Part shown: positions 3,552 to 61,164 of the stretch, one piece after another
Position numbering within the stretch: the first letter of the stretch is position 1
How the letters are laid out: each line of letters opens with the position of its first letter
DNA from: a bacterium
GTDB taxonomy: Bacteria; Patescibacteriota; Minisyncoccia; Phycocordibacterales; Phycocordibacteraceae
Reading direction: 5' to 3'
Assembly: GCA_021836725.1 (NCBI GenBank)
Contig: JAKBHL010000014.1
Span: forward strand, 1-61,659
DNA length: 61,659 bases
Made by a program: the position numbers and the translations under genes
The notes under the pieces: generated by a model
Database searches by the model: none
What the model saw: the letters and a program-made list of their open reading frames with translations, nothing else
What the model was told of the DNA's origin: nothing

Positions 3552-3768
3552 TAGAACTCATTTCAAAACCCCATCTCCCCGCGAGAGGTATGCGGCAGAA
3601 AGGAGTACGCCGTCTTTTTGTGCTCAAAAGGTGGCTTGAACTTACGCCGTCGCGCTCCGTTCGGAACTTCGATCCAGAGACTAAATTATATGTTTAACAT
3701 TTAATTTAGGTTTCTAGAGAAGCCTCTTTCTGCCGCATACCCGAGCGGGGTTTTTGAAATGAGTTCTA
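3552..3768 (+). repeat. Foldback MITE/REPIN-like element, copy 1 (with AT-rich hairpin insert)
   Basis: 17-bp terminal IR TAGAACTCATTTCAAAA/TTTTGAAATGAGTTCTA; core shared with copies 2-5. Confidence 0.85.
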
Positions 3769-3769
3769 T

Positions 3770-4504
3770 TCATTCCGCACGCTTCGCCATCCCGATGGCG
3801 GAAAGGAACACCGCGAGCTCCTCTCCCTCGATAGGGCGCCATTGCCCGGGCTTGAGGCCGCCGAGTTTGACGTTCAAGATGCGCGTGCGCTCAAGCGTGA
3901 CGACGGTGTTGTGGAGGGCCGCGACCATGCGGCGTATCTGATGCTTCTTGCCCTCGGAGAGCGTGATGAGGAAGCTCCTCGCGCCGGTCGTGCGCACCGT
4001 GCAGTGTTTCGTCAGGTAGCCTTCAATGTCGACACCCGCCTCCATCGTTTTCCGAAAGCTCTCACGGAGCGGATCCTTGGTTTGCACGCGGTATTCTTTG
4101 TCGTGATCATGCTCCGGATTGAGGAGGCGATCGGTCACCCGTCCGTCGTTGGTGAGGATGATCAGGCCGCTTGAGTCCTTGTCGAGCCGGCCCACCGGAA
4201 AGACATCTAAAGGAACGCTCTGTTTGATACTCTTTTCGCCCCTCTGGGGCGAGTGGGTGATGACGCCAACGGGTTTGTTATAGGCGAAATAAGAGTGCTT
4301 TTTTTGCGGACCGTCGCCCCGAAGCTCGACCGTGTCGCCTTTGCGCACTTTGTCGCCGAGCGCGGCAGTACGGCCGTTGATCAGCACTTTTTTCCTGATG
4401 ATGAGTTCATCCGCACCTTTGCGCGTGGCGACGCCGCTGTGTGCAAGGTATCTGTTTATGCGCATCGGGTACGCGTCTGCTGCGGCGGCAGCGGGTTTGG
4501 GCAT
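3770..4504 (-). CDS. rRNA pseudouridine synthase, RsuA/RluB/RluF family (S4 plus catalytic domain)
   Basis: MRINRYLAHSG S4 domain; VGRLDKDSSGLIILTNDG; LSEGKKHQIRRM. Confidence 0.92.
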   Translation of the reverse strand: MPKPAAAAADAYPMRINRYLAHSGVATRKGADELIIRKKVLINGRTAALGDKVRKGDTVELRGDGPQKKHSYFAYNKPVGVITHSPQRGEKSIKQSVPLDVFPVGRLDKDSSGLIILTNDGRVTDRLLNPEHDHDKEYRVQTKDPLRESFRKTMEAGVDIEGYLTKHCTVRTTGARSFLITLSEGKKHQIRRMVAALHNTVVTLERTRILNVKLGGLKPGQWRPIEGEELAVFLSAIGMAKRAE

Positions 4505-4560
4505 ATCCGCCACTATAGCCTGTTTTTCACTTTTTCCGGAAGTGCGTTATGGTGCACTCA

Positions 4561-6021
4561 ATGAGCCGGGAAGAAAGCGTTATCCGCTTCGAGAAGGTGT
4601 CGTTTGAATACGGGCACAACAAGCCGATCCTCGATGCGGTGGATTTCTCCGTGCGGCGCGGGATGAAGATGGCGATCATGGGCCAGAACGGCGCGGGGAA
4701 GTCGACATTGTTTGCGCTCATGTCCGGAGAACTGAAACCGGAATCCGGAGACATACACGTGGCGCGGGGCGTCACGATAGCCACGGCGCCGCAAGTCATC
4801 CCGCGCGGCGAGCTCACGCTCACGGTTCGCGAATTCTTCCAGAGGCGCTTTGCGAAGCCGGTGTACGACATCGATCCGCGCATCGACGCGGTGCTCGAAG
4901 TGGTGAACCTGCATCACCATGCCAAATTGCACGACCGCGTCATGAAGAGCTTTTCCGGCGGACAGCAGGCGCGCCTCCTCCTCGCTTCGGCGCTTATTCA
5001 GAATCCCGACCTCCTGTTTCTCGACGAGCCGACGAACAATCTCGACACTGCCGGCATCAAACATCTTACGGAATTTCTCGTCGAGTATCCCTCAACCTGC
5101 ATCGTCATTTCCCACGACGCGGAGTTCTTGAACGTGTTCACCACCGACGTGCTCTATCTCGATGTCTTTACCCGCAAGATCGAGCAGTACCAGGGGAATT
5201 ATCACGACGTGCAGCGCGATATCCTCATGCGCATCGAGAAAGAGAACAGGAAAAACGCTCAGTTTGAGAAAAAGATCCAGGACAATAAAGACAAAGCGAA
5301 CTTCTTTGCGCAGAAGGGCGGAAAGATGCGGCTCGTGGCGAAGAAAATGCGCACCGAAGCGGAAGAAATGGAGGAAGCGATAGTCGACGTGCGCAAGGAG
5401 GATCGCACGATACGGCCATTCACCATTCCCGCGCAGGAAGGGATCGGCGGCGTCATCCTCTCGCTCTCCTCATACACCGTCCTCAAGGGCGGGAAGCCCG
5501 TGGAGAAGAAAGCGGACATTGCTCTCAGAAAGAATAACCATCTTCTTTTGCGCGGGCCAAACGGCATCGGCAAAAGCACGCTCCTCGAGGCGATCGCCCG
5601 TAGGGTTGCGCCCGGCGCGCGCATCGCCGAGGGGGTGAAGGTCGGCTACTACCGCCAGGATTTCTCGACGCTCGATTTCGATCAAACGGTATTCGATGCG
5701 CTCATGAAGGCCATGGGGAAACCGGAGGAAGAGCGCATGCGCGCGACTGCCGCAGGATTCCTGCTCACGGCGGACGTCATGCGCACGAAGATTGGCAACC
5801 TTTCCGAAGGGCAGAAAGGGCTGGTCGCCCTTGCCTCGCTCGTCCTCAAGCGGCCGGGACTCCTCATACTCGACGAGCCGACAAACCACATAAACTTCCG
5901 GCATCTGCCCGTTATCGCCGCGGCGCTTGACGCCTATGCCGGCGCGATGATCCTCGTCTCGCACGTGAGCGAATTCGTCTCCCAGATCCGCATTGACGAC
6001 ATCCTCGACCTCGAGAAGTGA
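4561..6021 (+). CDS. ABC-F family ATP-binding protein
   Basis: Two ABC domains (GQNGAGKST, FSGGQ, LDEPTNNLD; GPNGIGKST, LSEGQ, LDEPTNH), linker, no TM segments. Confidence 0.9.
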   Translation: MSREESVIRFEKVSFEYGHNKPILDAVDFSVRRGMKMAIMGQNGAGKSTLFALMSGELKPESGDIHVARGVTIATAPQVIPRGELTLTVREFFQRRFAKPVYDIDPRIDAVLEVVNLHHHAKLHDRVMKSFSGGQQARLLLASALIQNPDLLFLDEPTNNLDTAGIKHLTEFLVEYPSTCIVISHDAEFLNVFTTDVLYLDVFTRKIEQYQGNYHDVQRDILMRIEKENRKNAQFEKKIQDNKDKANFFAQKGGKMRLVAKKMRTEAEEMEEAIVDVRKEDRTIRPFTIPAQEGIGGVILSLSSYTVLKGGKPVEKKADIALRKNNHLLLRGPNGIGKSTLLEAIARRVAPGARIAEGVKVGYYRQDFSTLDFDQTVFDALMKAMGKPEEERMRATAAGFLLTADVMRTKIGNLSEGQKGLVALASLVLKRPGLLILDEPTNHINFRHLPVIAAALDAYAGAMILVSHVSEFVSQIRIDDILDLEK

Positions 6022-6093
6022 GCTGTCCGGACAAGCGGTTTGCAGAGATCTTTCAAAAGAAGGCAGAACAGTGCGCTATAGTTAAGCGAAAGT

Positions 6094-7470: not shown

Positions 7471-7487
7471 GCGCGCCACGCGCAAGC

Positions 7488-7640
7488 TAAAACAAAACCC
7501 CCCGCTCGGGTGTGCGGCGGAAAGGAGTACGCCCGTCTTTTTGTGCTCAAAAAGCGGCTCGTACTCGCGCCGTCGCGCTCCGTAAGCCTCTTTCCACCGC
7601 ACACCCCTCGCGGGGAGGCGAGGGGTTGGAATGGGTTTTA
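7488..7640 (+). repeat. Foldback MITE/REPIN-like element, copy 2
   Basis: Same core (GAAAGGAGTACGCC...TTTTTGTGCTCAAAAAGCGGCTCGTACTC...CCGTAAGCCTCTTT); TAAAAC/GTTTTA ends. Confidence 0.85.
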
Positions 7641-7709
7641 ATGAGCCTTGCACCATCCGTATTTTGTTGTATATTGAACGCATCGGCCCGCGCGGCCATT
7701 TTTATTTCC

Positions 7710-9494: not shown

Positions 9495-9640
9495 GAAATA
9501 AAAAAAAGACCGAGCCACTGCATGCGCTCGGCCAAGGCCTCCACCGCGGAGAATAAGGTCAAAAGAGAGTAAAGACCTGCATCCAAGGTATCACATGCCG
9601 GGCCATTGGCAATGGTCGCCATGCTACGCATACGGCGTCC

Positions 9641-9686
9641 GCCCCAAACGCAAAAATCGCCCCCGGGCGATTTTTGCGTTTGGGGC
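9641..9686. terminator. 22-bp perfect inverted repeat between typA and the tmRNA 3' end
   Basis: GCCCCAAACGCAAAAATCGCCC-cc-GGGCGATTTTTGCGTTTGGGGC. Confidence 0.7.
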
Positions 9687-9698
9687 TCATTGATTTTG

Positions 9699-10105
9699 TG
9701 GAGGTGCGGGGAATCGAACCCCGGTCCGAATCCGGCCAAGAAAGCGAGTCTACGACGCATAGTCAGCGTTAGTGTCTACGGCAGGATGCGAGGAACGCAG
9801 ACGAAACCATTCCTGCCCGATCCCTTATTTAGGCGCGCTCCTCGGGAGCGGAGGCGCCGATCCTACAGGTAATTCCACCCCGGTCTCCGGCTGTAGAAAC
9901 CCGGGAGAGGGGATGTCGCGCAGGCGAAGAGCCGTTAGGCGGTCGCGTACGCGAACGCGAAGTCACGCGCACCGAAGTACGGAGACTTCACGCTTGCAAG
10001 AGTGTTCTTGGCAAGTTTGGTTGCTCGTTGGATTTTGAGTGTCATACGAGCGTGCACTGCGTCGCACGTCTTTCAAGGTACAGACCGTCAAAGCCGGTCA
10101 CCCCC
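9699..10105 (-). ncRNA. ssrA: tmRNA; tag reading frame 10012-9935 encodes AKNTLASVKSPYFGARDFAFAYATA*
   Basis: 5' GGGGGTGACCGGCTTTGAC; 3' GGGTTCGATTCCCCGCACCTCCA with G3-U70 pair; adjacent to smpB. Confidence 0.95.
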
Positions 10106-10267
10106 GGGAAGAGCAGGATACCATCCCGCGCTTTCCGTGATCGATCGGGAAATCCGCGCTCGACCTGTCCCTGCGAAGGGTACGGAGTATTTTTCTGTTG
10201 AAAAATCTCCTCGCCCTCGCCTCGTCAGGCTGCGGGAGCCCCTTCTCGGAACAGCTCTTCGCGCGGG

Positions 10268-10711
10268 CTAACGGTTTCTCATGTCGCGCCCCGCTTCCCG
10301 CAGGGCGGTGCGCTTCTTCAAGTCCTCGCGGCGGTCGGCTTTGCCTTTGCCGCGGACGATAGCGATGCGCGCCTTGACGAGCCGGTGTGCAGTATACAAC
10401 TCGATTGGGATGATTGTCAACCCCTTCTTTGATTCAGCGGCGGCGAGCGCGGCTATTTCTTTTTTAGCCAGCAGCAGCCGCCGCGCGCGTTCGGGGTCAT
10501 AGTTCTTCGGCGCATTCGCCGCCTGGTAGGGCGGAACGGTCATGCCGACGATAAACGCCTCGCCGCCGCGCACCACTACTCGCGCGCCCTCGAGGGAGCC
10601 GAGCTTGGCGCGCAGGGCCTTCGCTTCCTGTCCGGACAGCTCGATGCCGGCCGCGAACTCCTCGAGCGGCGCATACTTCAGGAAGAATTTCTTGTTTTCA
10701 ACGAGGATCAT
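10268..10711 (-). CDS. smpB: SsrA-binding protein SmpB
   Basis: ENKK...AGIELSGQEAKALR...ERARRLLLAKKEI...GLTIIPIELY...GKGKADRREDLK. Confidence 0.93.
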   Translation of the reverse strand: MILVENKKFFLKYAPLEEFAAGIELSGQEAKALRAKLGSLEGARVVVRGGEAFIVGMTVPPYQAANAPKNYDPERARRLLLAKKEIAALAAAESKKGLTIIPIELYTAHRLVKARIAIVRGKGKADRREDLKKRTALREAGRDMRNR

Positions 10712-11535: not shown

Positions 11536-11556
11536 GTGCAGAGTATAGTACCTTTC
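11536..11556. promoter_or_regulatory. 21-nt bidirectional -10 promoter (patatin / ftsH)
   Basis: TATAGT 7 nt before the ftsH ATG on +; TATACT 6 nt before the patatin ATG on -. Confidence 0.6.
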
Positions 11557-13512: not shown

Positions 13513-13523
13513 ACCATGCTTAG

Positions 13524-13596: not shown

Positions 13597-13638
13597 TTAT
13601 CGGAGAACAGTACCGACTCATACCACTCTAGCGCACGA

Positions 13639-18407: not shown

Positions 18408-20054
18408 CTATAACAAGACGCATACGGACTCTCGACAGGGTCCCGAAGCAGGAGGCGTCGGATAGGGGTTTATTCCACCACCTTGGAAAGGTGGCAGGCT
18501 CGAAAGGGTCTCGAGAGTTCGAATCTCTCCGCCTCCGCAGATTGAAACTTCCCCTGGTGTGAGGGGCGCCGCGCGAAGCGCGGCGGAGGGGCGCTCGGGC
18601 AGACAACCGCGCCGCGTAGCGGCGAATGTGAATGGGGCGGCAACCGAAAAGCGCGGGGATGCGGCGTCCAAAACGGGGTTCGTTCCAACTTTCAGCACAA
18701 AACGCTTCAGCGCGCCCAAGTCGCCTGCTGAACTCAAGAAAGCGGCTTGTTTCATATCCAAAATCCATTCCCGCAGGGGTTCGACCCGATTCTTTCTCCC
18801 GCGTTCAACATCTTTCAATTCTGCACGTAAAGCGGCGAGAGAGCGCATCAAGGCGTCCTTCTTGGCGAGATAAATATCTTTTGGCACATCGCCATCGAGA
18901 TACGCCGAGACCAGTCTCTCCATGCGCTCCTCGTCCGCTTTGATCGATTCTGAAAGATGCTGAACCTCGCTTTGCGACGCCCCGACTTCTTCGCGCTCCC
19001 ATCTCTGCACTTCCGCGAGCATCCAGTCGGTGTACCGATCGCAAAGCGAGATTGATTGAAGCCGTGCTCGTATATGGTCGGCGAGGGCACTTTCCTGCAC
19101 ATACGGCTGTCCACATGCACCGCGCTTCTTGGAACAGCGATAGTACCGATAGCGGCCGCCGCACTTGCCGGTCGTCCACTGTGCGCTAATCATCCCGCCG
19201 CACTCACCACAGCGGAAGAGTCCCGTGAGCGGGAAATCGTGCTTCACCCGGCGAGAGCGCGGACGCTCCTTGCCCTCGACGACTTTCCGCACGGCTTCAA
19301 ACAATGCGGGAGTTAGAATCGGCTCAAAGCTTCCCTCAAACCATTCGCCATCGTGTTTGATGAAGCCGAGATACGCTCGATTGGTCAGCAGCCGTTTGAG
19401 GGAAGCTTTGGCAAGTGGCGTGCCATATTTCGTCACCACGCCCAAGTCCGCCAAAAATGCGCCGAGCGAGATGAGTGAGTGCGTCCCTTTGGCGTATTCC
19501 TCGTATGCGAGCTTCACGATACGCGCATTGGTCGGATGTGGCTCGATATTCCTCACGCGCGGATTGTTCTCATAGCCAAAGGGCGCACGATTGAGCCACT
19601 CGCCTCGGCGCAATTTCTGGCGGACGCCGCGCTTGATGTTCTCGCTCAAATTGTCTGAATAATATTTCGATTGCCCGAACGCCACTTGCAACATAAAGAG
19701 CCCCTGCGGGGTTGGAGAGAACCAAAAAGTCGGAAAGCGTAAAGACACGATCTTCGCGGTGTCCACGGCGTAGATGACGCGCCCACCGTCAATCGAGTTG
19801 CGTGCCAAACGGTCGGGGTGCCACGCGAGGATGCCCTGTGCCTCTCCCGCCTCAATGCGCGCCATCATCTCGCTGAACACCGTGCGTCCGGGCGTCTTTG
19901 CGCTTCTCGACTCTTGAAACTCCGCTAGGATTTCAAAATTTTCTTTACGCGCCAACTCGCGTAACTCTACGAGCTGCGCTTCAATACTCATCACCTGGCG
20001 GTCGTCATCCTCCGTCGATTTGCGCGCGTATAGAAAATATTTTGGTTCTCTCAT
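18408..20054 (-). CDS. Large serine recombinase (resolvase, recombinase and Zn-ribbon domains, coiled coil)
   Basis: LYARKSTEDDDRQVMSIEAQ; WHPDRLARN; CGECG...YYRC; the 3' end reads through attL and antisense across tRNA-Ser. Confidence 0.95.
   Translation of the reverse strand: MREPKYFLYARKSTEDDDRQVMSIEAQLVELRELARKENFEILAEFQESRSAKTPGRTVFSEMMARIEAGEAQGILAWHPDRLARNSIDGGRVIYAVDTAKIVSLRFPTFWFSPTPQGLFMLQVAFGQSKYYSDNLSENIKRGVRQKLRRGEWLNRAPFGYENNPRVRNIEPHPTNARIVKLAYEEYAKGTHSLISLGAFLADLGVVTKYGTPLAKASLKRLLTNRAYLGFIKHDGEWFEGSFEPILTPALFEAVRKVVEGKERPRSRRVKHDFPLTGLFRCGECGGMISAQWTTGKCGGRYRYYRCSKKRGACGQPYVQESALADHIRARLQSISLCDRYTDWMLAEVQRWEREEVGASQSEVQHLSESIKADEERMERLVSAYLDGDVPKDIYLAKKDALMRSLAALRAELKDVERGRKNRVEPLREWILDMKQAAFLSSAGDLGALKRFVLKVGTNPVLDAASPRFSVAAPFTFAATRRGCLPERPSAALRAAPLTPGEVSICGGGEIRTLETLSSLPPFQGGGINPYPTPPASGPCRESVCVLL
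18451..18537 (+). tRNA. tRNA-Ser(GGA); integration target
   Basis: GGAGGCG...CGCCTCC-G; anticodon arm CCACC-TTGGAAA-GGTGG; long variable arm. Confidence 0.93.
18535..18641 (+). repeat. att arm Y (107 bp), inverted copy of 20115-20221
   Basis: Base-by-base reverse-complement identity read by eye. Confidence 0.9.
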
Positions 20055-20114
20055 AAATAGATTTGGATTTGAAACAAGCGCTGTATCCCCGCGTCTTTTC
20101 GGTCTTGCCTTGCC

Positions 20115-20392
20115 GCCGCCCCATTCACATTCGCCGCTACGCGGCGCGGTTGTCTGCCCGAGCGCCCCTCCGCCGCGCTTCGCGCGGCGCCCCTCACACC
20201 AGGGGAAGTTTCAATCTGCGGTGAGATACTCACCTTTGCGCGAACCCACTTCGACAACCCAACGACCTAACGCGCCTCGGGCGCTCGCTCCGCTCGCGCA
20301 CATCCCGCGCCGTTTCCTTTGCATTTTTGTGCGGCTCCTCCCCCGACCCCTCCGCCGAAAGGCAAAAAATGATGGAAAAGGAAACGGCGCGG
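20115..20392 (-). repeat. Internal inverted attP-like junction: arm Y' (20115-20221) plus arm X' (20218-20392), overlapping at GCGG
   Basis: Left part is the reverse complement of 18535-18641; right part is the reverse complement of 25326-25500. Confidence 0.9.
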
Positions 20393-20411
20393 ATGTGCAC
20401 CTATTGAAATA

Positions 20412-20438
20412 TATCACAATATTGTGATACTTCACAAT
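20412..20438 (+). promoter_or_regulatory. Probable HTH (C-box-like) operator
   Basis: 18-bp perfect palindrome TATCACAATATTGTGATA (20412-20429), overlapping ATTGTGA-tact-TCACAAT (20421-20438), upstream of the XRE gene. Confidence 0.65.
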
Positions 20439-20462
20439 AATCTGTATGATTGTGGTGTGGAT

Positions 20463-20669
20463 ATGAGCACACCATCAACCAAACTTGGGAAAAACATCAA
20501 GCGCATTCGCGAACAGAAGAACATGTCGCAAGGAGACATATGCCGCGAAGTCGGTTTTGATCGTGCGCAGATGAGCAATATCGAGTCGGGCAAAGGAAAC
20601 CCCACCCTTGCGACGATAGAGAAGATTGCCCGTGCGCTCGGTGTCACGAGCGACGAACTGCTAAAATAA
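20463..20669 (+). CDS. XRE-family HTH regulator (RM controller-like)
   Basis: LGKNIKRIREQKNMSQGDICREVGFDRAQMSNIESGKGNPTLATIEKIARAL. Confidence 0.9.
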   Translation: MSTPSTKLGKNIKRIREQKNMSQGDICREVGFDRAQMSNIESGKGNPTLATIEKIARALGVTSDELLK

Positions 20670-20673
20670 ATTT

Positions 20674-21798
20674 ATGGCTAGAGAAGCATCAGTCAAAAAT
20701 CTTACGAATGCTAAACGGGCAAAGAACGATGAGTTTTATACTCAGTACATCGACATTCAGAAAGAAATTGAAAAGTATTTAGATTACAACCCTAATACAT
20801 TCCGAACTAAGGTAGTGTATTGCAATTGTGACGATCCCTTCGAGAGCAATTTCTTTCGTTATTTTGTTCTCAATTTCAACAAACTTGGATTGAAACAGCT
20901 TATCACCACGAGCTACAAGCCATCGCCTGTCGCAAACACACAATTAGGATTATTTGGCGACGACAAGACGTTAGGCACGCCAAAAGGTCGCCCAAAAATA
21001 ACCGCCAACAAATTTATTATCAATGAAGTAAAGGACATAGATGGCGACGGCGAGTTTAACTTGAAAGACGTTGCCAAACAGTTAAAGGCAAACAAAAACA
21101 ATGAATGGGCACCTCTGGCTGGCGACGGCGATTTCCGTAGCGATGAGTGCGTTGAGCTGCTCAAGCAGTCCGATATAGTGGTAACCAATCCGCCTTTCAG
21201 TCTGTTTCGTGAATATGTAAGGCAACTCTATGATTACAATAAAAAGTTTTTGATCATCGGTAATATCAATTGCATAACTTACAGAGAAATATTCCAAAAG
21301 ATCAAAGAAAACAGGGCGTGGCTTGGTAATGGAATGGGCAGATGGATTTCTGGGTTTATTGTACCCGAGTCCTATGACTTGTACGGGACAGAAGCTCGGA
21401 TAGATGAGAACGGAAACAGAATCGTTGCCACTAACAATTGTTTATGGCTCACCAATCTTGATCACGGACGTCGTCATCAACCATTGCCGCTTATGACCAT
21501 AGCGGAGAATTTGAAGTATAGTAAACATAAGGAAATCAGAGGTAAAGAATCATATGATACATATGATAATTACGATGCGATAGAAGTACCTTTCACCGAC
21601 GCAATACCAAGTGATTATAAAGGCGTAATGGGTGTGCCGGTTAGTTTTTTGGACAAATATAATCCTGATCAGTTTGAAATTGTCGGATGTTCTTATGATT
21701 ATGGAAGACCCGAAGGATGGGATAAGGATATCGATATGGCAGTCTCGATAAATGGCGTGAATGTGTATAAAAGGATATTAATCGAACATAAAAAATAG
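20674..21798 (+). CDS. Adenine-specific DNA methyltransferase, EcoRI family
   Basis: [37 protein letters not shown]. Confidence 0.9.
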
Positions 21799-21799
21799 T

Positions 21800-22969
21800 A
21801 TGAAAACAACTTTGAAAATAAATACTACCGTTAGGGAGATTTGCGACGGTTTCGTATATAACGAACTCGAAGGCAAAGGTTTGTTCGGTCTGTCTGGCAA
21901 GCTCACTATCCAGCCGGAATATCAGCGTAATTATATTTACGCCTCTGACGGCGGCAAAAGAGAAATGGCCGTCATTGAGTCAGTGCTCAAAGGGTATCCA
22001 ATAGGGTTGATCTACTTCAATGAAGTCTCTGCCGACAATCTAGAAGTTTTAGACGGGCAACAGCGCATCACCAGTCTGGGGCGGTTTGTGACTGATAAAT
22101 TTGCCATCAAAGACGAGAACGGGATGGAGCAATATTTTGGCGGCATGGCAAAAGACAAGCAAAAAAAGATTTTGGAAACGAAATTACTCATTTACGAGTG
22201 TGAGGGCACCGAAAGCGAAATAAAAGAGTGGTTCAAGACCATTAACATTGCGGGTGTGCCATTGAACGATCAAGAGCTTCTGAACGCCGTGTACTCGGGG
22301 CCGTTCGTCACGCTCGGCAAGGAAGAGTTTAGTAACAGCCAAAACGCCAATATACAGAAGTGGAGCGCGTACATTCGTGGTAGTGCCGCACGGCAGGAGT
22401 TTTTGGAGCGCGCGCTTGATTGGGTAAGCAAAGGCAACATTGGCGACTATATGAGCCGTCATCGCACCGACAAAAATATCACCGAACTCAAGACCTATTT
22501 CAAGAGCGTGATTGACTGGGCGTCCAGTGTCTTTACCGATGTAGAAAGTGAGATGAAGGGACTTGAGTGGGGCCGGCTCTATGAGGAGCATCACAAGAAG
22601 GCGTATAGTCCCGCGAAGGTGTCTGCTGAAGTACATAAACTCTACGCCGATCCATACATCAAAAATCGCAAAGGAATTTTTGAGTACGTTCTCGGCGGAT
22701 CTAGCGACACAAAGTTGCTAGAGGTGCGCGTGTTTGATGAGGCGACTAAAAAAGCGACCTATGCAACACAGACTGCGGCGGCGGAAAAGAAGCACGCTTC
22801 AAACTGCCCGCTCTGCGCGATTGGACACGATGCGAGCAAAGACAAGATTTGGAAACTAGACGAAATGGATGCCGACCACGTTGCGGCGTGGAGCAAGGGC
22901 GGCAAGACTTCCTCGAAAAACTGTCAGATGCTCTGCAAGACGCATAATCGAGCGAAAGGTAATCGTTAA
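21800..22969 (+). CDS. DUF262 (GmrSD-like) plus C-terminal HNH endonuclease
   Basis: [19 protein letters not shown]; CPLC...DADH...[14 protein letters not shown]. Confidence 0.88.
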
Positions 22970-23051
22970 AATCGCAAGAGGGCTTAAGGCTTGTAAAATA
23001 AGCCCAAAATGTTGGTTAAATAGAAAAAAGACAATTTTCTGTCTAAAATGC

Positions 23052-23080
23052 TTGACTTTTAAAACAAGTAGGAATACAAT
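23052..23080 (+). promoter_or_regulatory. sigma70-type promoter for the ATPase pair
   Basis: TTGACT-17 nt-TACAAT. Confidence 0.6.
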
Positions 23081-23119
23081 GTCTGTATTAATACAAAATA
23101 ATGTCATTATACCAAGATT

Positions 23120-24394
23120 ATGTTAATAACAAGAATTAAGGCTAGCAACTTCTACGGGATAAAAGATCCTGTTGAAGTGTCGTTCACCGAAGGCGGCGAA
23201 AAAGAAAAAATAGGATATGTAAATTTCGGGAAAGAGAGAATCTCTCTTATCTCTGGTTTTTATGGTGCCAATGCGTCAGGTAAAAGTACCATATTAAACA
23301 TTATCGATACTGTAGCCAGAATAATGGTCGCGAAACAACAAGATTTTGTACTTGCTCCTAACGGGATAAAACAAGAGGTCGTTATATCTCTTCCAAACTT
23401 TACAACTGCGATGCAGACGAAACCCATTGTAATGGAGATGGATTTTATTATTGGAGACGATAAATATAATTATTCAGTTTCTATCATAAATGAGGGTAAG
23501 GAAATTTCAGAAGAAGTTTTATACAAAAATACTAAAAAAATCTTCAGTAGAAAAGATCATGGTATTTCGTTTGAAAGCAAAATTGGAAAAAATATAGATG
23601 CTTTAGCTAAAAATATCGTAGCACCAAAGAAATCTTCTTTTCTCTCTGTTATTTTAGATGACAGCTCTGATGTTTCTGTATTCGCAAACATCAAAGAAGA
23701 AATTGGAATTTCTAATCTTAACCAAATAAAGACCAATTTCTGTTTTATTACTGATAAGCGTTCGGTTCAGATGGGGCAAAATAATCTTAACGGGTTACTT
23801 GCTTTTGCAATTAACTATCTCAATAGCAATACTCAAAAACAGAGCGAAATGCTTGGTGCAGTTAATTCTGTAGTAAAGTATTTTGAGCCATCTTTTGAGA
23901 GTCTTGTTATCAAAAAAGAAAGTGATGTTAACCCAATAAACAAATCTTTCGCCTTTACCTACGAAGCAAAATATAAGGACTTCTATAAAAATCTTGGTAC
24001 CACAGAACTCTCTGCTGGAACGCGAGAACTCATCGCGTATATAGGAGATATTCTTAGAATATTAAAAGTGGGAGGCGTTGTTATCTACGACGAGACAAGC
24101 AAGTTTTATCACCCAGATATGGAGATTGCTATTCTCAACCTCTTTAAAGACAAAGACATAAACAAGAAAAATGCCCAATTATTCTTTTCATCACACAATC
24201 ACGAGACATTTGACCTCTTACAGAATGATCAGGCACACATTGTAGAAAAGAAAGATGGCAATATTGTTGTGTCAAAAGTGTCAGATTACGATGTTAAAGA
24301 AAGAGATAACATAAAGAGAATCTATCGTCTCGGTTCGCTTGGAGGCATACCAAATACTATTGATTTCAGTAGGATTATAAATAATCTCTTATAA
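23120..24394 (+). CDS. AAA/ABC ATPase, RloA/AbiEii-like
   Basis: GFYGANASGKST; ELSAGT; IYDE...FYHP; QLFFSSHN; YRLGSLGGIP; very AT-rich. Confidence 0.82.
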   Translation: MLITRIKASNFYGIKDPVEVSFTEGGEKEKIGYVNFGKERISLISGFYGANASGKSTILNIIDTVARIMVAKQQDFVLAPNGIKQEVVISLPNFTTAMQTKPIVMEMDFIIGDDKYNYSVSIINEGKEISEEVLYKNTKKIFSRKDHGISFESKIGKNIDALAKNIVAPKKSSFLSVILDDSSDVSVFANIKEEIGISNLNQIKTNFCFITDKRSVQMGQNNLNGLLAFAINYLNSNTQKQSEMLGAVNSVVKYFEPSFESLVIKKESDVNPINKSFAFTYEAKYKDFYKNLGTTELSAGTRELIAYIGDILRILKVGGVVIYDETSKFYHPDMEIAILNLFKDKDINKKNAQLFFSSHNHETFDLLQNDQAHIVEKKDGNIVVSKVSDYDVKERDNIKRIYRLGSLGGIPNTIDFSRIINNLL

Positions 24395-24398
24395 GCTT

Positions 24399-24971
24399 AT
24401 GCCTAAAAAGAAAAGCTTTAAGATATATTATTTACTACTCACCGAAGGAACAACGGAATTTAATCTTTTTGGTTATTTAACAACCAATAAGTTTAAAGGA
24501 GACTTTGAGGGTTCTAATGTTCAATTTAGTATCAAGGTTGAAATTGTAGACGCTGGAATCTCACAAGGTAAATTAAACGGAGTTGGAAATGGCACTTCTT
24601 TTAAGACCAAATATGACTCGATTAAAGACGATACTAGATATGTTGGTCAAAAATTATTCTTTGTGATAGATAAGGATTTTGACGATTCTTTGCAAGTAAA
24701 AGAGCTTATAGAAAAAGATGGCAATATCGTCCAGTTTGTTGAATATAATTCTGAACATCTATTGTTAAGATTTGGAGGCAAGAACCCCAGGAATCCTAAA
24801 GATTTTAAAAATATGGGAGAGTTTAGAGATTATTGCAAGAACGAATTTGAAAAACAGTTCAATAAGAAAGCCTCAGAGTTTAAAGATGCTGATTTCGATT
24901 CAATATTTGCAAATACTACAGACGATGCAGTAAAGAAAACTTTTGTTGAATTGTTTTCTACCCTGTCTTAA
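24399..24971 (+). CDS. RloB-like (Toprim-like) partner protein
   Basis: N-terminal LTEG and a VIDKD acidic motif; directly follows the ATPase. Confidence 0.6.
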   Translation: MPKKKSFKIYYLLLTEGTTEFNLFGYLTTNKFKGDFEGSNVQFSIKVEIVDAGISQGKLNGVGNGTSFKTKYDSIKDDTRYVGQKLFFVIDKDFDDSLQVKELIEKDGNIVQFVEYNSEHLLLRFGGKNPRNPKDFKNMGEFRDYCKNEFEKQFNKKASEFKDADFDSIFANTTDDAVKKTFVELFSTLS

Positions 24972-25325
24972 TTTATAAAGGGAGCCGCCCGCTGATGCGG
25001 GCGGGCTTGCGCGCGCACTGGGTGGGCGGGGCAAGCGCACACAGATTGCTTGTGCCCTTCGGTAGTTGGGCACAATCCGCTTTTTGAGTTGGCACCGGCT
25101 CGACCGAAGTCGCCGAGCGAACACGGAGCCGCACCGAACAGGCATCGCGAGCGAATGCGAGCGGCCTGTGCGAGGTGCGGGCGTAGTGTGAGCGGACGCT
25201 AGAGCTACACCAAATGTGGCTATGGGAGCGCCTCGTCCGCCACGAGGACGGAGAAAGCGGAGATTGGGAGCAATGGATACTTTGCGACCTTTCGGAGCTT
25301 TAGGAGGACGAAGTGGCGGGGCAGA

Positions 25326-38564: not shown

Positions 38565-38610
38565 ATCGAATGCGAAAACCCACGCAGGAGCGTGGGTTTT
38601 CGCATTCGAT
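38565..38610. terminator. 21-bp perfect inverted repeat between nrdJ and the rnpB 3' end
   Basis: ATCGAATGCGAAAACCCACGC-agga-GCGTGGGTTTTCGCATTCGAT. Confidence 0.7.
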
Positions 38611-38968
38611 GGGTCGGGCCGATAAGCCGAATTCTGTCTGGATTCTCACAAAGAGAACCGAGGCGATCATTTATCTGGGATCCCGATCGCTCGGGACCTC
38701 AAGCGGCACTTCCGTCAAAAGACGGACACGGCCTTGCACGGAGGTAAGGATTTAGCCGTTTCACCTCCCGAGTCGCCTCGGGAGCTCGTCTTCCGGAGCT
38801 CTCGCTTCGGAAGACGCTTCCTGCCTTTCGTCGGAAGCGTCTCTGCTCGCACCTCGCGCCTTACGGCGTGCGGGCGTTACCCGCTACCGTCCTCCCCGCC
38901 AAGGGCGGGGCCGTGTTCGGACTTTCCTCCCCGCAATTTCTTGAAGGGCAATCGCCTGGCCCGGCCGA
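38611..38968 (-). ncRNA. rnpB: RNase P RNA
   Basis: GAGGAAAGTCCGAACAC near the 5' end; CAGAATTCGGCTTATC at the 3' end; TATAAT upstream; ends approximate. Confidence 0.92.
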
Positions 38969-45457: not shown

Positions 45458-45599
45458 TAGAACCCATCTCAACCCCCCCTCGGGTATGCGACAGAAAGGA
45501 GTACGCCGTCTTTTGTGCTCAAAAAGCGGCTCGTACTCGCGTCGTCACGCTCCGTAAGCCTCTTTCTGCCGCATACCTCTTGCGGGGAGATGGATTCTA
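45458..45599 (+). repeat. Foldback MITE/REPIN-like element, copy 3
   Basis: TAGAACCCATCTC...GAGATGGATTCTA ends; conserved core. Confidence 0.87.
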
Positions 45600-47763: not shown

Positions 47764-47854
47764 ATCTCTCTTCGTTCGCGTTGAGGGAAAGGGAAACGGG
47801 TCTGCAAAGCGAGAACCGCCACTTGCGTGGCGGTTCTCGCTATAGTTCACGATT

Positions 47855-48061
47855 TGAACCCACCTCAAACCCCCGCGAGGGATATGCGACAGAAAGGAGT
47901 ACGCTGTCTTTTTCTGCTCTAAAAGTGGCTCGTACTCGCGTCGTTACCACAGAGAGTACTTCCAAGTTTCTAATTCGCTCCGCTCATAAGAAACTTTTGG
48001 TCGCGCAGCTCCGTAAGCCTCTTTCTGCCGCATATCCCTCGCGGGGGAGCAGAAGGTTTTG
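47855..48061 (+). repeat. Foldback MITE/REPIN-like element, copy 4 (with hairpin insert)
   Basis: Conserved core plus a ~55-60 nt insert containing an AAGTTTCT/AGAAACTT stem. Confidence 0.85.
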
Positions 48062-48092
48062 CATTGGTCCTAAGACGAGGAGCTGATATTTC

Positions 48093-50824: not shown

Positions 50825-50833
50825 GTTCATATC

Positions 50834-51538: not shown

Positions 51539-51555
51539 CGTTCCATTCTACCGCA

Positions 51556-53679: not shown

Positions 53680-53746
53680 TGCCTGTAAAATATAGCAAAA
53701 ATAAGGCGAGGATGCCTATTCCGCGGGAAAGACGTCCGCAAGTGTC

Positions 53747-54967
53747 TCACGGGGCGAGCGTGCGATTGCCGTTTGCCGCTAGGGCATCCGGTTCGGAGAA
53801 GTCGCCGCGGAGCGCGCGATAGAAGCCGGCAAGCGCGATCATGACGGCATTGTCGGTCGTGAGCGCGGCGGAAGGGATGCGGAGCGTCACGTCGAGGTGC
53901 TCATTTTTTATTTTTTCGGTAAAAGTGCGGCGGATATGCTTGTTTGCCGAGACGCCGCCGCCCAGGGCGAGCGTTTTTGCCCGCGTTTTCTCAAGCGCGC
54001 GTGCAGTCTTCTTCGAGAGCACGTCAGCCACGGCATTTTCAAATTCGAGCGCGACATGTTTCTTTTCCGTCTCGCTCATCTCGGGATTGTTTTTCAAGAG
54101 ATACAGCGCTGCCGTCTTTAGTCCTGCAAACGAGAAATCGCACGTCGCGTCTCCGCTCATCGGTCGCGGCAACGAATACTTGGCGGTTTCACCGCCAAGT
54201 GAAAAGCGGAGAGATTCGGCGAGACGCGATATCTCCGGTCCGCCCGGGTAGGGGAGGGAGAGCATGCGGGCGACCTTATCGAAAGCTTCGCCGACAGCAT
54301 CGTCGCGCGTCTGCCCGAGGAGTTCGTACTCGAGCCATTTTTTTATGACGACAAGTTCCGTGTGTCCGCCTGAGATGAGGAGCGCGAGCACTGGCATCTC
54401 CACATCTTCAATAACAAGGTTAAACCTTGTCGGAATTAAGGGCGTATTTGCTGTATCGTAGGAGACCTCCTTTGCAAGCGCGGCGAAAATATGCCCCTCC
54501 ATGTGGTTGACCGCGACGATCGGTTTTTCCCAAAGAAGCGCAAGCGCTTTTGCGAAATTGATACCGACCCAGAGCGCCGGCTCAAGTCCCGGGCCCGCCG
54601 TGACCGCGATGGCGTCAATGGGCGCCGGTTCGCACTCGCTGACAAATTCGAAGAACGCTTCGGCGAGACCGGGCTCGCGCGCCAAAATTTCTGAGATTTT
54701 TTCGTGCATCGCCTCCGGTAGAGCTTGCGTATCTTCATGCAGGAGCTCCGCCTCCTCGAGCGCCGCCTCAAGGATCGGTACGAGATTCTTCGCGTGCTCG
54801 CGCTTGGCGAGAGCGGGGAAGACGCCGCCGTATTCCCGATGGACGTCTATCTGCGAAAGGAGCGCGTTCCCGAGCACGGTGAACTGCGCTGCTCTTTCAT
54901 CGCCCGCCGCTTCGACGATCGCAATCGCCGTCTCGTCGCAGCTGGTTTCAATCGCGAGAATCCTCAT
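53747..54967 (-). CDS. tsaD: t6A37 threonylcarbamoyltransferase subunit TsaD
   Basis: ILAIETSCDET; HMEGH; SGGHT; DDAVGEAFDKVAR; TDNAVMIA. Confidence 0.94.
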   Translation of the reverse strand: MRILAIETSCDETAIAIVEAAGDERAAQFTVLGNALLSQIDVHREYGGVFPALAKREHAKNLVPILEAALEEAELLHEDTQALPEAMHEKISEILAREPGLAEAFFEFVSECEPAPIDAIAVTAGPGLEPALWVGINFAKALALLWEKPIVAVNHMEGHIFAALAKEVSYDTANTPLIPTRFNLVIEDVEMPVLALLISGGHTELVVIKKWLEYELLGQTRDDAVGEAFDKVARMLSLPYPGGPEISRLAESLRFSLGGETAKYSLPRPMSGDATCDFSFAGLKTAALYLLKNNPEMSETEKKHVALEFENAVADVLSKKTARALEKTRAKTLALGGGVSANKHIRRTFTEKIKNEHLDVTLRIPSAALTTDNAVMIALAGFYRALRGDFSEPDALAANGNRTLAP

Positions 54968-55820
54968 GTTCTTCGATCTCGACCCAGGGCATCGCGCTGC
55001 CGTTTTCGATAAAGAATCCAGCTGAGCCGGAGTGGCCTCCGCCCCCGTATTTTTCAGCGATTTTCGACACATCGACAAGCGTGTTGTCTCCGCGAATAGA
55101 GACACCGAAACCATTTGGGTGCGCGGTCACGACGAGCGCAAAAGGAGGGAGCTCCGTATACAACTCATGGCCGACGAACGATTTCATCGTAATGTCAGGA
55201 TGCGTTGCGGCAAAATATACCTCGTACCCTTCGAAACGGACTTTTTTTGCCCGTTTGATTGAAGCGTTTCCGAGCGCCTCAAAGAATTCCGTATATGCAC
55301 GGGCTTTTTTCATTATGTCAGCGCGGCGTGTTTGATCCTCAAGCTGGAGCATGAGATCATCCCATGCAGGGAACTCATACGGAAGGACAAACAGATAGGA
55401 AAAGATATCGCGCGTTTCGGGGAGGGCATAGCGATAGAGATCTCCGTCTTCAAGGCAGCGCATAAGGAGCGGTACCGGAGTGTCGGGGTAAAAATAACTC
55501 CATGCGATGGTCGCGCCGGAGCGCTTTTCATCGTAGACCCCTTCAGGCGCATTCTCGACGAGCGTTTTCGCGCTCCTGTGGTGATCAAGGACAACAAGGC
55601 GTTTCGTCGCTTGAGCAAGCGCATCCATCTGCTCAGCGCTCTCGTAGCAGAAATCGATGAGATACACTTCGCGGCCCTCAAGGCCTTCTGGCGGCGCGTC
55701 GCCATGATCAACTGGGATGTAGTCAGCCGTATCACCGAATTTCTTCCATGCGGCGTACGCGCCGCCGAAACCGTCGGGACATTTGCCGTGATAGAGGACG
55801 ACGAGGTGCTGGTAGGGCAT
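54948..55820 (-). CDS. DHH/DHHA1-family phosphoesterase
   Basis: YHGKCPDG, LIDF, LDHH, GGGGH. Confidence 0.85.
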   Translation of the reverse strand: MPYQHLVVLYHGKCPDGFGGAYAAWKKFGDTADYIPVDHGDAPPEGLEGREVYLIDFCYESAEQMDALAQATKRLVVLDHHRSAKTLVENAPEGVYDEKRSGATIAWSYFYPDTPVPLLMRCLEDGDLYRYALPETRDIFSYLFVLPYEFPAWDDLMLQLEDQTRRADIMKKARAYTEFFEALGNASIKRAKKVRFEGYEVYFAATHPDITMKSFVGHELYTELPPFALVVTAHPNGFGVSIRGDNTLVDVSKIAEKYGGGGHSGSAGFFIENGSAMPWVEIEEHEDSRD

Positions 55821-55829
55821 GAGGACAGT

Positions 55830-57481: not shown

Positions 57482-57557
57482 TGGTGCGCGGTAAGGGACT
57501 CGAACCCCTGACCCTCTCAACGTCAATGAGATGCTCTACCAACTGAGCTAACCGCGC
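57482..57557 (-). tRNA. tRNA-Val(GAC), CCA encoded
   Basis: GCGCGGT...ACCGCGC-A-CCA; TCTCA-TTGACGT-TGAGA. Confidence 0.94.
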
Positions 57558-57613
57558 GTGCGGGTACTCTACCACAGAGCCTCTCCAACCTGAAGACGCG
57601 CACGGACAACGGT

Positions 57614-59026: not shown

Positions 59027-59142
59027 CGGGCGCATTCTAACATACTCGTCTCTCCGCAAAGTTCGAGACGCGATTTTGCAATTTTTGCGCCAAAAAAAGT
59101 TTCGTTTTGTGAGTCAGTTGAAGCTCAATAAATCACAGTTTG

Positions 59143-59214
59143 TGACCCCACGGGGAATCGAACCCCGATTTACGCCGTGAAAGGGCGCTGTCCTAGCCGT
59201 TAGACGATAGGGCC
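59143..59214 (-). tRNA. tRNA-Glu(UUC)
   Basis: GCGCC-CTTTCAC-GGCGT; T-loop TTCGATT. Confidence 0.92.
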
Positions 59215-59264
59215 GTTATCGAACCTTATCATTTTCAGTATGAAATGCTAGGATGGCGAGCACA

Positions 59265-59350
59265 GGAGGCGTCGCATAGTTGGTCTAGTGCGCCGGTTTC
59301 GAAAACCGGTATACCGCAAGGTATCGTGAGTTCGAATCTCACCGCCTCCG
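59265..59350 (+). tRNA. tRNA-Ser(CGA)
   Basis: GGAGGCG...CGCCTCC-G; CCGGT-TTCGAAA-ACCGG; long variable arm. Confidence 0.93.
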
Positions 59351-59526
59351 CAAACAAAAACATCCCGTTCGGATAGAGCCGCGCGCGGGGTTGATGCGGT
59401 AGAATTAGTAGAATTGACGGGAGTTTGGGTTCAAATTCTTTTCAGCTCCAGGGCCGGTTGAATAAAAAAAGAGCCCGCGAGGTTAGCCAAGCGGGCTCTG
59501 TCATTTGATTGAAGATTCTACACGGT

Positions 59527-60540
59527 TCAGATTCCGACGACACGCCGCATCACGTCCTCAACATCCGCGCGCGCGATGCTGCGCTTCGCGAGCTCTTCCC
59601 GGTAGAGCCACCAGAATGCCGCGACTCCCTGGTTTACCACCATGGGAATCCCGTCGAGGACCGGCTTTCCTTGTCGCCGCGCCTCTGCGAGCATCGGTGT
59701 TTCCGTTTTACGGATGCGGATGTCCGAGACGATCAGATTCGGTTTCGTCCGGCGCAAGAGCATCACTGTCCGTTCAAGATTTTCCCTGATGGAGTCCGGT
59801 GTCACCGGAAACTCCATGTCGCCGAGAGCCGAGTACTCGTCGAGCGGGGACTGCGCATCGTCAACAACCGAAATCACGGCGTCTTGCGAAGGGAGTACTT
59901 CGGGGATGAATGTTCGTCCTCCTCCTGTCGCTATGGCCGATCCCTCGTATGCGTTCAGGGCTTCTGCAAGTTCCTCGGCTTTCTTTTCGGTCCGATTCAA
60001 GATGATAAGCCGCACGCCTTTTTGCGCGAGAGCGAAAGAAATCGCCCGTCCCGAACCGCCAGCGCCGAGCAGAAGTACCTGCGCTCCCTTAAGTGCTCGG
60101 CCTTGCAGTGTGAACTCTTTCTCAAGGCTTTGCACATAGCCGGTGCCGTCGGTGTTATCGCCGGAGAGGCTGCCATCAGGCATCTTCCGGATGATATTGA
60201 CGGCGCCCATCGCTTTGGCAAGAGGCGTGATGTCGTCAAGGCACGGTATGACCGCTTCCTTGAATCCGATGCCCGCGCCGCCACCACGATACCGCTCATC
60301 GCTCCGAAACACCTCCATGATGCGGACGGTGTGCTTCGGGTCAGCTACCATCATGCTGTTGTGATCCGGCATCGCGAATTTCGCATATGCCGCATTCCAC
60401 ATGAGTGCCGTTTTTGCCGGGTAATCTTCGGCAATCAACGGCACGGTGAGAGACGTCGCATCCTCGATGTCCCGCCAGTTTTCGGGGGGAAGCGAAGCGA
60501 TCTTAAGAATCCCCTCGCGTAGCAAGCCGTTGATTGTCAT
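59527..60540 (-). CDS. Shikimate dehydrogenase-like (AroE family) oxidoreductase
   Basis: GFKEAV, GAVNII, GDNTDGTG, LLGAGGSGRA, DGIPMVVNQG. Confidence 0.8.
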   Translation of the reverse strand: MTINGLLREGILKIASLPPENWRDIEDATSLTVPLIAEDYPAKTALMWNAAYAKFAMPDHNSMMVADPKHTVRIMEVFRSDERYRGGGAGIGFKEAVIPCLDDITPLAKAMGAVNIIRKMPDGSLSGDNTDGTGYVQSLEKEFTLQGRALKGAQVLLLGAGGSGRAISFALAQKGVRLIILNRTEKKAEELAEALNAYEGSAIATGGGRTFIPEVLPSQDAVISVVDDAQSPLDEYSALGDMEFPVTPDSIRENLERTVMLLRRTKPNLIVSDIRIRKTETPMLAEARRQGKPVLDGIPMVVNQGVAAFWWLYREELAKRSIARADVEDVMRRVVGI

Positions 60541-60561
60541 GTCGTACTCCTCATCGGTTAG

Positions 60562-60954
60562 TTAAAGGTATGAGAATTCGATAACACTCGCGTCCTCGTC
60601 GCCTCCTACAGGGCGTTTCTCGAAAAAGGAAAGCTCACGTTGCACCTCCTTCCAATTTTGATACGAGAGGGTGTTGCGCAAATCGATCGGTGTCAATTGC
60701 CGGAGTGGCGAAACGACGACCGTCTCAATGCGTACAGTGCGATTGAGGTGTTCGGTATTCTCATCGTCGAACACACGAAGTACCACAGTCTCTCCTCGCG
60801 TATATCCCTTCGGATGACCGTTGTTACGAGCGCCGAGACGAGGGGTCGCAGTGATGCGTCTATTCTCAATGAGCTCCGAAAGAACTGTCAGGGGTACTTT
60901 CGGACTCGGCCGAAACCAAATCTCAGGCCGGTCTGTATGGCTACGGTGTAGCAT
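60562..60954 (-). CDS. Hypothetical protein, ASCH/PUA-like
   Basis: GGAGG 6 nt before the ATG at 60954; ITATPRLG...GETV...VRIETVVV..LRQLT pattern. Confidence 0.6.
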   Translation of the reverse strand: MLHRSHTDRPEIWFRPSPKVPLTVLSELIENRRITATPRLGARNNGHPKGYTRGETVVLRVFDDENTEHLNRTVRIETVVVSPLRQLTPIDLRNTLSYQNWKEVQRELSFFEKRPVGGDEDASVIEFSYL

Positions 60955-61020
60955 ATTCGTCCTCCGCGTATCGCCGTCTTCCATTATATGATATACACGC
61001 GCCACGCGGAAATATTTCAT

Positions 61021-61164
61021 CAGAACCCCCCCGCGAGGGATATGCGGCAGAAAGAGGCTTACGGAGCGTGACGACGCGAGTACGAGCCGCTTTTTGAGCA
61101 CAAAAAGACGGCGTACTCCTTTCTGTCGCATACCCGAGCGGGGGAGGTGGCGGGACGGATTCTA
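61021..61164 (-). repeat. Foldback MITE/REPIN-like element, copy 5
   Basis: Core nearly identical to copy 3, on the minus strand; TAGAATCC...GGTTCTG ends. Confidence 0.87.

Follow-up and report, generated by a model that had tools for sequence, protein, structure and literature searches.

The contig JAKBHL010000014.1 (assembly GCA_021836725.1), whose 61,659 nucleotides are called the window in the following, carries a family of short foldback repeats. We regard these, with a probability of about 0.7, as non-autonomous, non-coding foldback transposable elements, i.e., MITEs (miniature inverted-repeat transposable elements), of a Paceibacteria/Parcubacteria lineage. The copies are of MITE size, non-coding and dispersed, they have terminal inverted repeats (TIRs), and they are present or absent at orthologous sites, which also holds true for a divergent member designated A'. 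An earlier note, made from the letters of the window alone, had described five copies and had proposed either a non-autonomous mobile element or an RNA or single-stranded DNA (ssDNA) structure kept by selection. The TIRs, the sequencing depth, the empty sites, the inversion and the deletions described below support the mobile element, whereas a structured RNA kept by selection is not favored.

Members and anatomy of the element family

Five close copies (c1 to c5) and the divergent sixth member A' are located in the window. The bit scores refer to a covariance model built from the close copies.

c1, 3552-3768, plus strand: 217 nt, full TIRs and TA at both ends
c2, 7488-7640, plus strand: 153 nt, between the Nramp stop codon and the TypA promoter; 111 bits
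A', 10155-10265, plus strand: sixth, divergent member; nhmmer E-value 6.5e-7; 40 bits
c3, 45458-45599, plus strand: 142 nt, short reference copy, just after tRNA-Gly; 108 bits
c4, 47854-48072, plus strand: 219 nt, long form
c5, 61021-61164, minus strand: 144 nt, short form; 115 bits

The positions of c1, c2, c3 and c5 are those of the earlier note; c4 was also correctly recognized, but its extent had been set slightly too short (47855-48061). As claimed there, all five copies are intergenic. They have no coding capacity, and overlaps with genes result only from spurious extensions of open reading frames (ORFs). An 18-nt core, GGCAGAAAGGAGTACGCC, has five matches in the window with at most three mismatches, compared to 0.05 expected. 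The close copies measure 142-219 nt, and the size range including A' is 111-219 nt.

Both ends of the copies are formed by inverted repeats of ~21 nt (TAGAACCCATYTCAAACCCCC). In all sequence examined, comprising the window and the related loci, the TIR consensus is confined to element ends, and no solo terminal repeats were found beside ORFs. Most copies in the window, in related genomes and at loose ends of contigs from the sequencing runs show the arrangement TA-GAACCC...GGGTTC-TA beside unrelated flanks. The tendency of the ends toward TAGAAC...GTTCTA, noticed before, was confirmed: c1 matches exactly and c3 has one mismatch at the right end (ATTCTA), and the ends of c2 (TAAAAC...GTTTTA), c4 (TTGAAC...GTCCTA) and c5 (TAGAAT...GTTCTG) are degenerate. 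c1 adjoins a stop codon and c5 an ATG; the right TIR of c5 is truncated, its end abutting the ATG (61020-61018) of a downstream ORF on the minus strand.

From the outside inwards, the elements consist of TA, a ~21-bp TIR (GAACCCATYTCAAACCCCC), second arms (GGGTATGCGRCAGAAAG and CTTTCYGCCGCATACC) and an asymmetric core, in which the long hairpin P2 and the 4-bp mini-hairpin P3 are accompanied by an unpaired stretch of 11 nt. The arms have a length of ~45 nt. In c3, TA and the outer repeat TAGAACCCATCTCAACCCCCCC are followed by a short mismatched motif, the arm GGGTATGCGACAGAAAG, P2, P3 and the unpaired TCCGTAAGCCT; on the 3' side, the matching inner arm is followed by an outer repeat ending in TA. 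The parts of c3 are located as follows.

Left TIR, 45458-45479, plus strand: TA + GAACCCATCTCAACCCCCCC
5' inner arm (helix S1), 45482-45498, plus strand: GGGTATGCGACAGAAAG, pairs with 45562-45578; 6-10 pairs changed on both sides
P2 hairpin, 45499-45538, plus strand: GAGTACGCCGTC-TTTTG-tgct-CAAAA-GCGGCTCGTACTC
P3 mini-hairpin, 45539-45550, plus strand: GCGT-cgtc-ACGC
3' inner arm, 45562-45578, plus strand: CTCTTTCTGCCGCATAC
Right TIR, 45584-45599, plus strand: GGGGAGATGGATTC + TA

The arms of most copies contain a symmetric 2x2 mismatch, with TC opposite TC on one strand and tandem GA/GA on the other, which lies at 45482-45490 and 45570-45583 in c3 and at the same place in other copies. In four copies it is resolved to Watson-Crick pairs, each in one of the two possible ways. 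This mismatch may be a strand mark of the hairpin or a by-product of arm exchange.

c1 and c4 owe their greater length to discrete inserts of ~59 nt, which are located at two different internal points. The 59-nt insert of c1 (3661-3719) is AT-rich and directly follows GCTCCGT; that of c4, at about 47945-48003, lies within the P3 loop and creates a longer hairpin. The insert type of c4 also occurs in copies of related genomes, and judged by depth the long form accounts for about 10-25% of all copies. An independent mobile nature of the 59-nt insert was considered and rejected; its sole match in L001 is a truncated long-form copy. Judged by eye, motifs of the core recur in diverged form within the long-form insert (GAGAGTAC resembling GGAGTACG, and CGCTCCGCTCGTAAG resembling CGCTCCGTAAG), which may represent a partial internal duplication rather than foreign DNA.

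Copy number, empty sites and rearrangements

With five close copies and one divergent copy in 62 kb, the window harbors one copy per 10-12 kb. The contig depth over the element was 35-50 times that of the flanks in four DNA runs of the source site, and the depth of the core, counted at 85% likeness, was 50-75 times the flank depth. This ratio agrees with the copy density of the window; the family has spread to dozens of copies in the genome. At least nine further copies were found in related metagenome-assembled genomes (MAGs), one of which has copies on five contigs. An exact-pattern scan covering one genome per species revealed the core in two related MAGs only, with ~88% and 93% nucleotide identity to the window, and a scan of metagenome contigs gave one match, located at a contig end. 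Plasmid and phage collections yielded no blastn match, and exact-pattern scans of viral contigs no match. The multi-copy family is thus limited to one narrow clade. Over the inner 100 nt, the copies are 83-96% identical to each other, which is about equal to the identity of orthologous copies between lineages; the c1 ortholog in the related locus L004 is 99% identical.

Two precise pairs of empty and occupied sites, which the earlier note had suggested looking for, were identified in related genomes. At the first site, 20 nt separate the stop codon of a 98-aa gene from a gene for a Pif1 helicase (86% identical) in L029, and the empty allele reads ...GAATTA-GCGGTCTG. In MAG BP9.bin55 (L002) an element is present exactly at that spacer (...GAACTA-AAACCC...GGTTTC-TG-TCGAGTCTG). 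At the second site, the same MAG (L002) has the empty allele (...GTAC-TA-GTGAATG) and L023, whose flanks are ~93% identical, the occupied one (...GTAC-CA-GAACCC...GGGTAC-CG-GTGAGTG). The junction of each empty site shows just one TA, within TTAG at the first and CTAG at the second site, whereas each occupied allele is longer by two extra bases. Together with the family consensus, this geometry would fit a duplication of the TA upon insertion.

Elements were also found to differ in orientation. The ortholog of c4 in BP9.bin55 (L003, and again L021) has the opposite orientation between the same flanks, and the outer arms of c1 are flipped relative to its core when compared with other copies. A 4-nt motif of the arms reads either CTCG or CGAG, with all four left/right combinations being present, and an extra segment of 8-10 nt is located in the 3' arm of most copies and in the 5' arm of c1 and c5. 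The core must therefore have been reversed against the arms, with the crossover lying at different points. The ortholog of c5 in L005 is of the long form and has a swapped outer-arm asymmetry; long and short forms thus occur at orthologous sites. GC skew gave no signal for a replication-linked orientation.

At other sites only remnants are present. The c1 site of a sister lineage (L013/L014) contains nothing but the footprint TAGAACTCATTTC; this deletion could have arisen by slippage, with TCATTTC of the left repeat and TCATTCC of the right flank as the two partners. At the c3 site of BP9.bin55 (L003/L021), a 28-nt footprint of the left end is found, the same allele as in a contig of run X4, and at the Pif1 site of a third lineage 7 nt of the left end are kept beside 1.5 kb of other DNA. 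At the c2 site of the sister lineage (L013 12950-13060; L014, L015), the 3' arm is fused to an unrelated double palindrome (AAGATAGCATCTT / AAGATGTCATCTT). This tandem-palindrome module was also observed beside elements at loose ends of contigs from the RNA run, and it is missing from the window.

The inverted c4 ortholog and the flipped core of c1 could also be expected if the elements were sites of a site-specific recombinase, either attC-like folded sites or multi-locus invertible switches under one invertase. AAC...GTT in the ends, as in attC, the imperfect hairpin with internal mismatch formed by the whole element, and a serine recombinase encoded in the window point in the same direction. 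However, the ends TAGAAC/GTTCTA do not fit RYYYAAC/GTTRRRY, and the copies lie dispersed between housekeeping genes, in either orientation, and do not form a one-way cassette array; on these end motifs and this layout the attC reading was rejected. The invertible part has no promoter, and no strand-switch joints within populations were seen in eight DNA runs, for which assembled contigs were used, which drop rare variants. Neither an integron integrase nor a small invertase nor a tyrosine recombinase was present among the scanned ORFs, and the only recombinase of the window (18408-20054) is of the large serine type and belongs to a tRNA-Ser island. Taken together, recombinase sites are a very improbable explanation. 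The earlier statement that the window lacks a transposase was borne out by Pfam scans of about 50 ORFs, and no transposase appeared in a Pfam scan of L008 or in the Pfam lists of the related loci.

This island (18408-25000), which is integrated at tRNA-Ser, has features of its own. The serine recombinase is encoded on the minus strand and the 3' end of its gene overlaps the tRNA (18451-18538); further island genes encode an EcoRI-type adenine methyltransferase (20674-21798), a GmrSD/HNH nuclease (21800-22969) and an AAA_21 ATPase (23120-24394). The GC content is 41-47% at 21-27 kb, compared to 55% for the window. In the metagenome contig L008 (JAEHJW020009977.1, 1-5553), phage-like genes for a large terminase, a small-terminase-like helix-turn-helix protein and two DNA methylases with a ParB domain are joined directly to the 38 nt following tRNA-Gly and the start of c3. 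This junction may reflect a prophage beside tRNA-Gly, a phage with host sequence or a chimeric assembly; scans of viral contigs for the flank of the junction gave no match.

The closest proteins and genome records of the window are those of Paceibacteria, Minisyncoccota or Parcubacteria, and every sequencing run in which the region or the element occurs was made from mine drainage or from sediment and soil related to it. The host is a Paceibacteria/Parcubacteria lineage of mine drainage and belongs to the Candidate Phyla Radiation (CPR). The neighbors of the elements are housekeeping genes, namely those for Nramp, TypA, SmpB, FtsH, RecG, LepA, MurJ, a two-component pair, glutaredoxin and a class I (I/L/M/V-type) aminoacyl-tRNA synthetase. 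For the histidine kinase encoded between c3 and c4, close homologs (L022; P0121-P0123) were found only on contigs of 1.9-2.6 kb that end at repeats. As these contigs end at repeat positions, the element evidently fragments short-read assemblies of this lineage. Elsewhere in the window, a TsaD/Kae1 homolog (53747-55114) comprises 455 aa and matches Pfam in three stretches, the first starting at residue 238, which suggests an N-terminal extension or fusion.

Fold, covariation and transcription

The nested fold described in the earlier note is common to all five copies, and its stability is far above that of shuffled sequences, with z-scores of -6 to -9. For c3, folding energies of -65 kcal/mol (plus strand) and -75 kcal/mol (minus strand) were calculated (z -7 to -8); the z-scores of c4 and c1 were -6.2 and -9.4, respectively. 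The two compensated changes from A-T to G-C in c2 (columns 6/98 and 13/91) and the extra A-T pair in the arms of c4 (columns 4/100) were found as reported before.

The covariation of the stems also held on larger alignments, where it extends to all three helices. In an alignment of ten close copies from which the inserts had been removed, paired cells amounted to 95.0% compared to 92.2% after shuffling, and nine two-sided changes were counted compared to 2.7 (arms six, P3 three, P2 none); none of 500 shuffles reached nine, and slid controls gave at most two. In an alignment of eight sequences, including a diverged copy from L023 and A', the corresponding values were 92.7% versus 84.5% and 15 versus 4.5 two-sided changes (arms ten, P2 three, P3 two), with 15 being reached in none of 500 shuffles and slid controls not exceeding four; in both alignments the shuffle control is flattering, since the sequences are related. 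Moreover, exchange from arm to arm could transfer a change without selection, which limits the meaning of the covariation in the arms. P2 is invariant or shows one-sided changes among the close copies, and its compensated changes are those of the L023 copy and A'. P3 occurs as GCGT/ACGC, GCGC/GCGC, GCCC/GGGC and GCCT/AGGC. The fold of the L023 copy is partly rearranged in that the lower stem of P2 has disappeared and P3 is extended by a new GCTCTC/GAGAGC stem, which looks more like palindrome-driven mutation than like the keeping of one exact shape.

A' was not part of the earlier note. It matches the covariance model over its full length and has its own foldback arms (ACCTGTCCCTGCGAAGGG / CCCTTCTCGGAACAGCT) and a homologous three-helix core of different sequence, with a GGAG..TTTTTC-tgtt-GAAAAA..CTCC hairpin and a GCCT-cgtc-AGGC hairpin. 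It lies upstream of the tmRNA gene, ~55 nt away from the 5' end of the latter. The window encodes tmRNA, RNase P RNA and eight tRNAs, the first two at the following positions.

tmRNA, 9696-10105, minus strand: 92 bits
Bacterial class A RNase P RNA, 38607-38967, minus strand: 126 bits

A' is 100% identical in the window, L009, L013 and L015, whereas the flanks differ by 4.5% between the lineages; in its surroundings (10091-10290), ~90 nt differ at about nine positions. It is missing in L014; the ABC-F proteins of one MAG without and one MAG with A' are identical, and near-identical strains differ in the presence of A'. The identity of A' could be due to recent spread by recombination or to constraint.

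The covariation, which lies well above shuffles and slid controls and includes A', and the complete identity of A' between flanks that differ by 4.5% would also fit a structured RNA family, i.e., a small RNA or a cis-acting mRNA element selected for a host function in processing, stability or termination. Transcripts do exist: in a metatranscriptome of the same study, contigs containing the element were found that run into unique flanks, in one case after a tRNA gene, and the copy at the Pif1 site must be co-transcribed because it lies in a 20-nt operon spacer. The depth of these contigs was low, however, and no discrete abundant RNA was seen, as far as assembled metatranscriptome contigs, a weak measure, can tell. 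The tmRNA, which is extremely abundant in metatranscriptomes of the site, reached a depth of 10^4-10^5 in the same RNA run, and the A' region had zero depth. Rfam returned nothing on the elements, neither for the window at gathering thresholds nor for c3 with E-values up to 10, where the best hits had 12 bits (E 2.8-3.7); the Rfam match that the earlier note had named as speaking against its proposal was thus not found. Scans for promoters and terminators gave nothing consistent within the element.

The strand likewise provides no support for an RNA function. One-sided changes comprised, read on the plus strand, about 8-9 G.U versus five A.C events and show no strand preference; the minus strand of c3 folds better, but no consistent bias exists across copies, and the ratio was rejected as a sign of the RNA strand. 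Relative to neighboring genes, five copies are co-directional, two are opposed and three lie between convergent genes, and one ortholog is inverted in place. Finally, copies are deleted or absent in sister lineages that retain the same genes. A structured RNA selected for a host function is therefore distinctly unlikely. In view of the low depth, the run-on into the flanks, the missing orientation bias and the lack of a consistent promoter or terminator, the elements are transcribed passively with their neighbors, and the assembled contigs, weak as this measure is, contain no pointer to a discrete stable RNA.

Mechanism and comparison with known systems

For a family of transposable elements, the following course of events can be proposed. 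A transposase whose gene lies elsewhere in the genome or has since disappeared would bind the terminal repeats in trans and insert the element at TA dinucleotides, which the two empty sites present as CTAG and TTAG, with the TA being duplicated. TA insertion with TA duplication is a signature of the IS630/Tc1-mariner superfamily, and the elements are probably IS630/Tc1-mariner-like MITEs. After insertion, the ~45-bp inverted arms might drive self-recombination of the element, which would lead to inversion of the whole element or its core, to exchange of arm segments and to slippage deletions with footprints. The same recombination, or selection for the hairpin in ssDNA or read-through RNA, could keep the arms complementary and so give rise to compensatory changes.

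Several observations weigh against this course of events. The duplicated TA is mutated in both occupied alleles for which an empty partner exists (TA/TG and CA/CG). The window and ~400 kb of related loci yielded neither a transposase nor a longer element whose ends match. All three deletion alleles have kept the left end, which recalls the asymmetric excision of REPINs and not the footprints of cut-and-paste transposition. Furthermore, compensatory changes are also present in the short P2 and P3 hairpins; they go beyond what recombination of the arms would explain, and therefore some selection or a template-switch process must act on the fold itself.

The last two observations could be accommodated by a REPIN-like or IS200/IS605-like element, whose folded single strand would be moved by an HUH (Y1) transposase such as RAYT that recognizes the hairpin and its mismatch instead of double-stranded terminal repeats. 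Compensatory changes preserve the hairpins in all three helices of the family, and they are common in REPINs, for which excision leaving part of one end, a few bases in length, has also been reported (PMC3116915). In addition, the symmetric 2x2 mismatch kept in most copies could mark one strand. On the other hand, the family has long TIRs that end in TA, and its empty sites show the geometry of a 2-bp duplication, whereas IS200/IS605 elements and REPs make no duplication; a conserved target tetranucleotide beside one end and a GTAG head are absent. The window and the related loci contain no RAYT or TnpA gene, the ~45-nt arms are not themselves REP-like hairpins, and the boundaries of the footprints are inconsistent (13, 28 and 7 nt), one of them fitting the TCATTTC/TCATTCC slippage. 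We therefore judge such a single-strand element to be improbable; among the rival explanations, it carries more weight than a selected structured RNA, which in turn is ahead of recombinase sites or invertible switches.

It is also conceivable, if unlikely, that the conserved three-helix core with P2, P3, the unpaired GCTCCGTAAGCC and the retained 2x2 TC/TC (GA/GA) mismatch of the arms forms a folded nucleic acid with a function of its own instead of being a passenger. It could serve as a single-strand recognition fold for a novel CPR recombinase or transposase, or as a cis-acting RNA module co-opted by these reduced genomes, possibly with its orientation switched by in-place inversion. We retain this idea because covariation spans the two diverged subfamilies, A and A', and because A' is perfectly conserved at its position upstream of the tmRNA gene. 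If an enzyme indeed recognizes the fold of the core, this would point to a transposition system new for CPR.

As MITEs, the elements are of interest in several respects. The genomes of CPR/Parcubacteria are very small and compact, and tens of copies, corresponding to ~1% of a genome of ~1 Mb, would mean that active selfish DNA persists in them. Breakage of assemblies at the elements bears on MAG quality and strain typing. Copies are situated at gene boundaries, i.e., at a stop codon, at a start codon, at sites following tRNA genes and at one upstream of the tmRNA promoter, and may alter expression. In addition, the family is a compact natural example of how foldback elements behave, with insertion, inversion, arm exchange and slippage deletion observable among lineages that are 7-12% apart. 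Literature searches gave no description of interspersed repeats in CPR/Parcubacteria.

Correia elements have TIRs flanked by TA, subtypes with left and right arm variants and a variant with an internal insertion or deletion. In Neisseria these elements (CREE/NEMIS) are about 100-200 bp long, non-coding and present in dozens to hundreds of intergenic copies, they are transcribed with their neighbors as hairpins, and their in-place inversion has been documented (PMC10969869). The family described here resembles them in size, in its intergenic non-coding copies, in the TA-flanked TIRs, in the arm variants, in the internal indel form and in the in-place inversion. It differs from them in that it shares no sequence similarity, resides in the CPR, folds back over the whole element with a covarying three-helix core and has no detected promoter.

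The ERIC/IRU sequences of enterobacteria are imperfect palindromes over their whole length of ~127 bp, which are intergenic and co-transcribed; longer forms arise by inserts of ~60-70 bp at fixed internal points and shorter ones by deletions. A whole-length imperfect palindrome with inserts at fixed points is likewise found in our family, again without sequence similarity. ERIC is not known to have a transposase and shows little sign of recent movement, whereas clean empty sites exist between close lineages here. With the REPINs mobilized by RAYT the family shares hairpin-forming inverted doublets with a spacer and copy numbers in the tens to hundreds. It differs from these by long TIRs that end in TA, by junctions with the geometry of a 2-bp duplication, by its larger size (142-219 nt) and by the three-helix core, besides the missing GTAG head and RAYT gene mentioned above.

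The insertion at TA and the TA on both sides are shared with MITEs derived from IS630/Tc1-mariner elements, such as RUP of pneumococcus, and a CTAG-like target, as in one of the empty sites, corresponds to the preference of IS630. Unlike in those cases, the window and the ~400 kb of related loci yielded neither an IS630-type transposase nor a full-length parent, and here the TA duplication is deduced from the junctions. In summary, the family is new and shares no sequence with Correia, ERIC or REPIN elements, but as a MITE-like foldback element it belongs to a well-known type and does not constitute a new kind of system.

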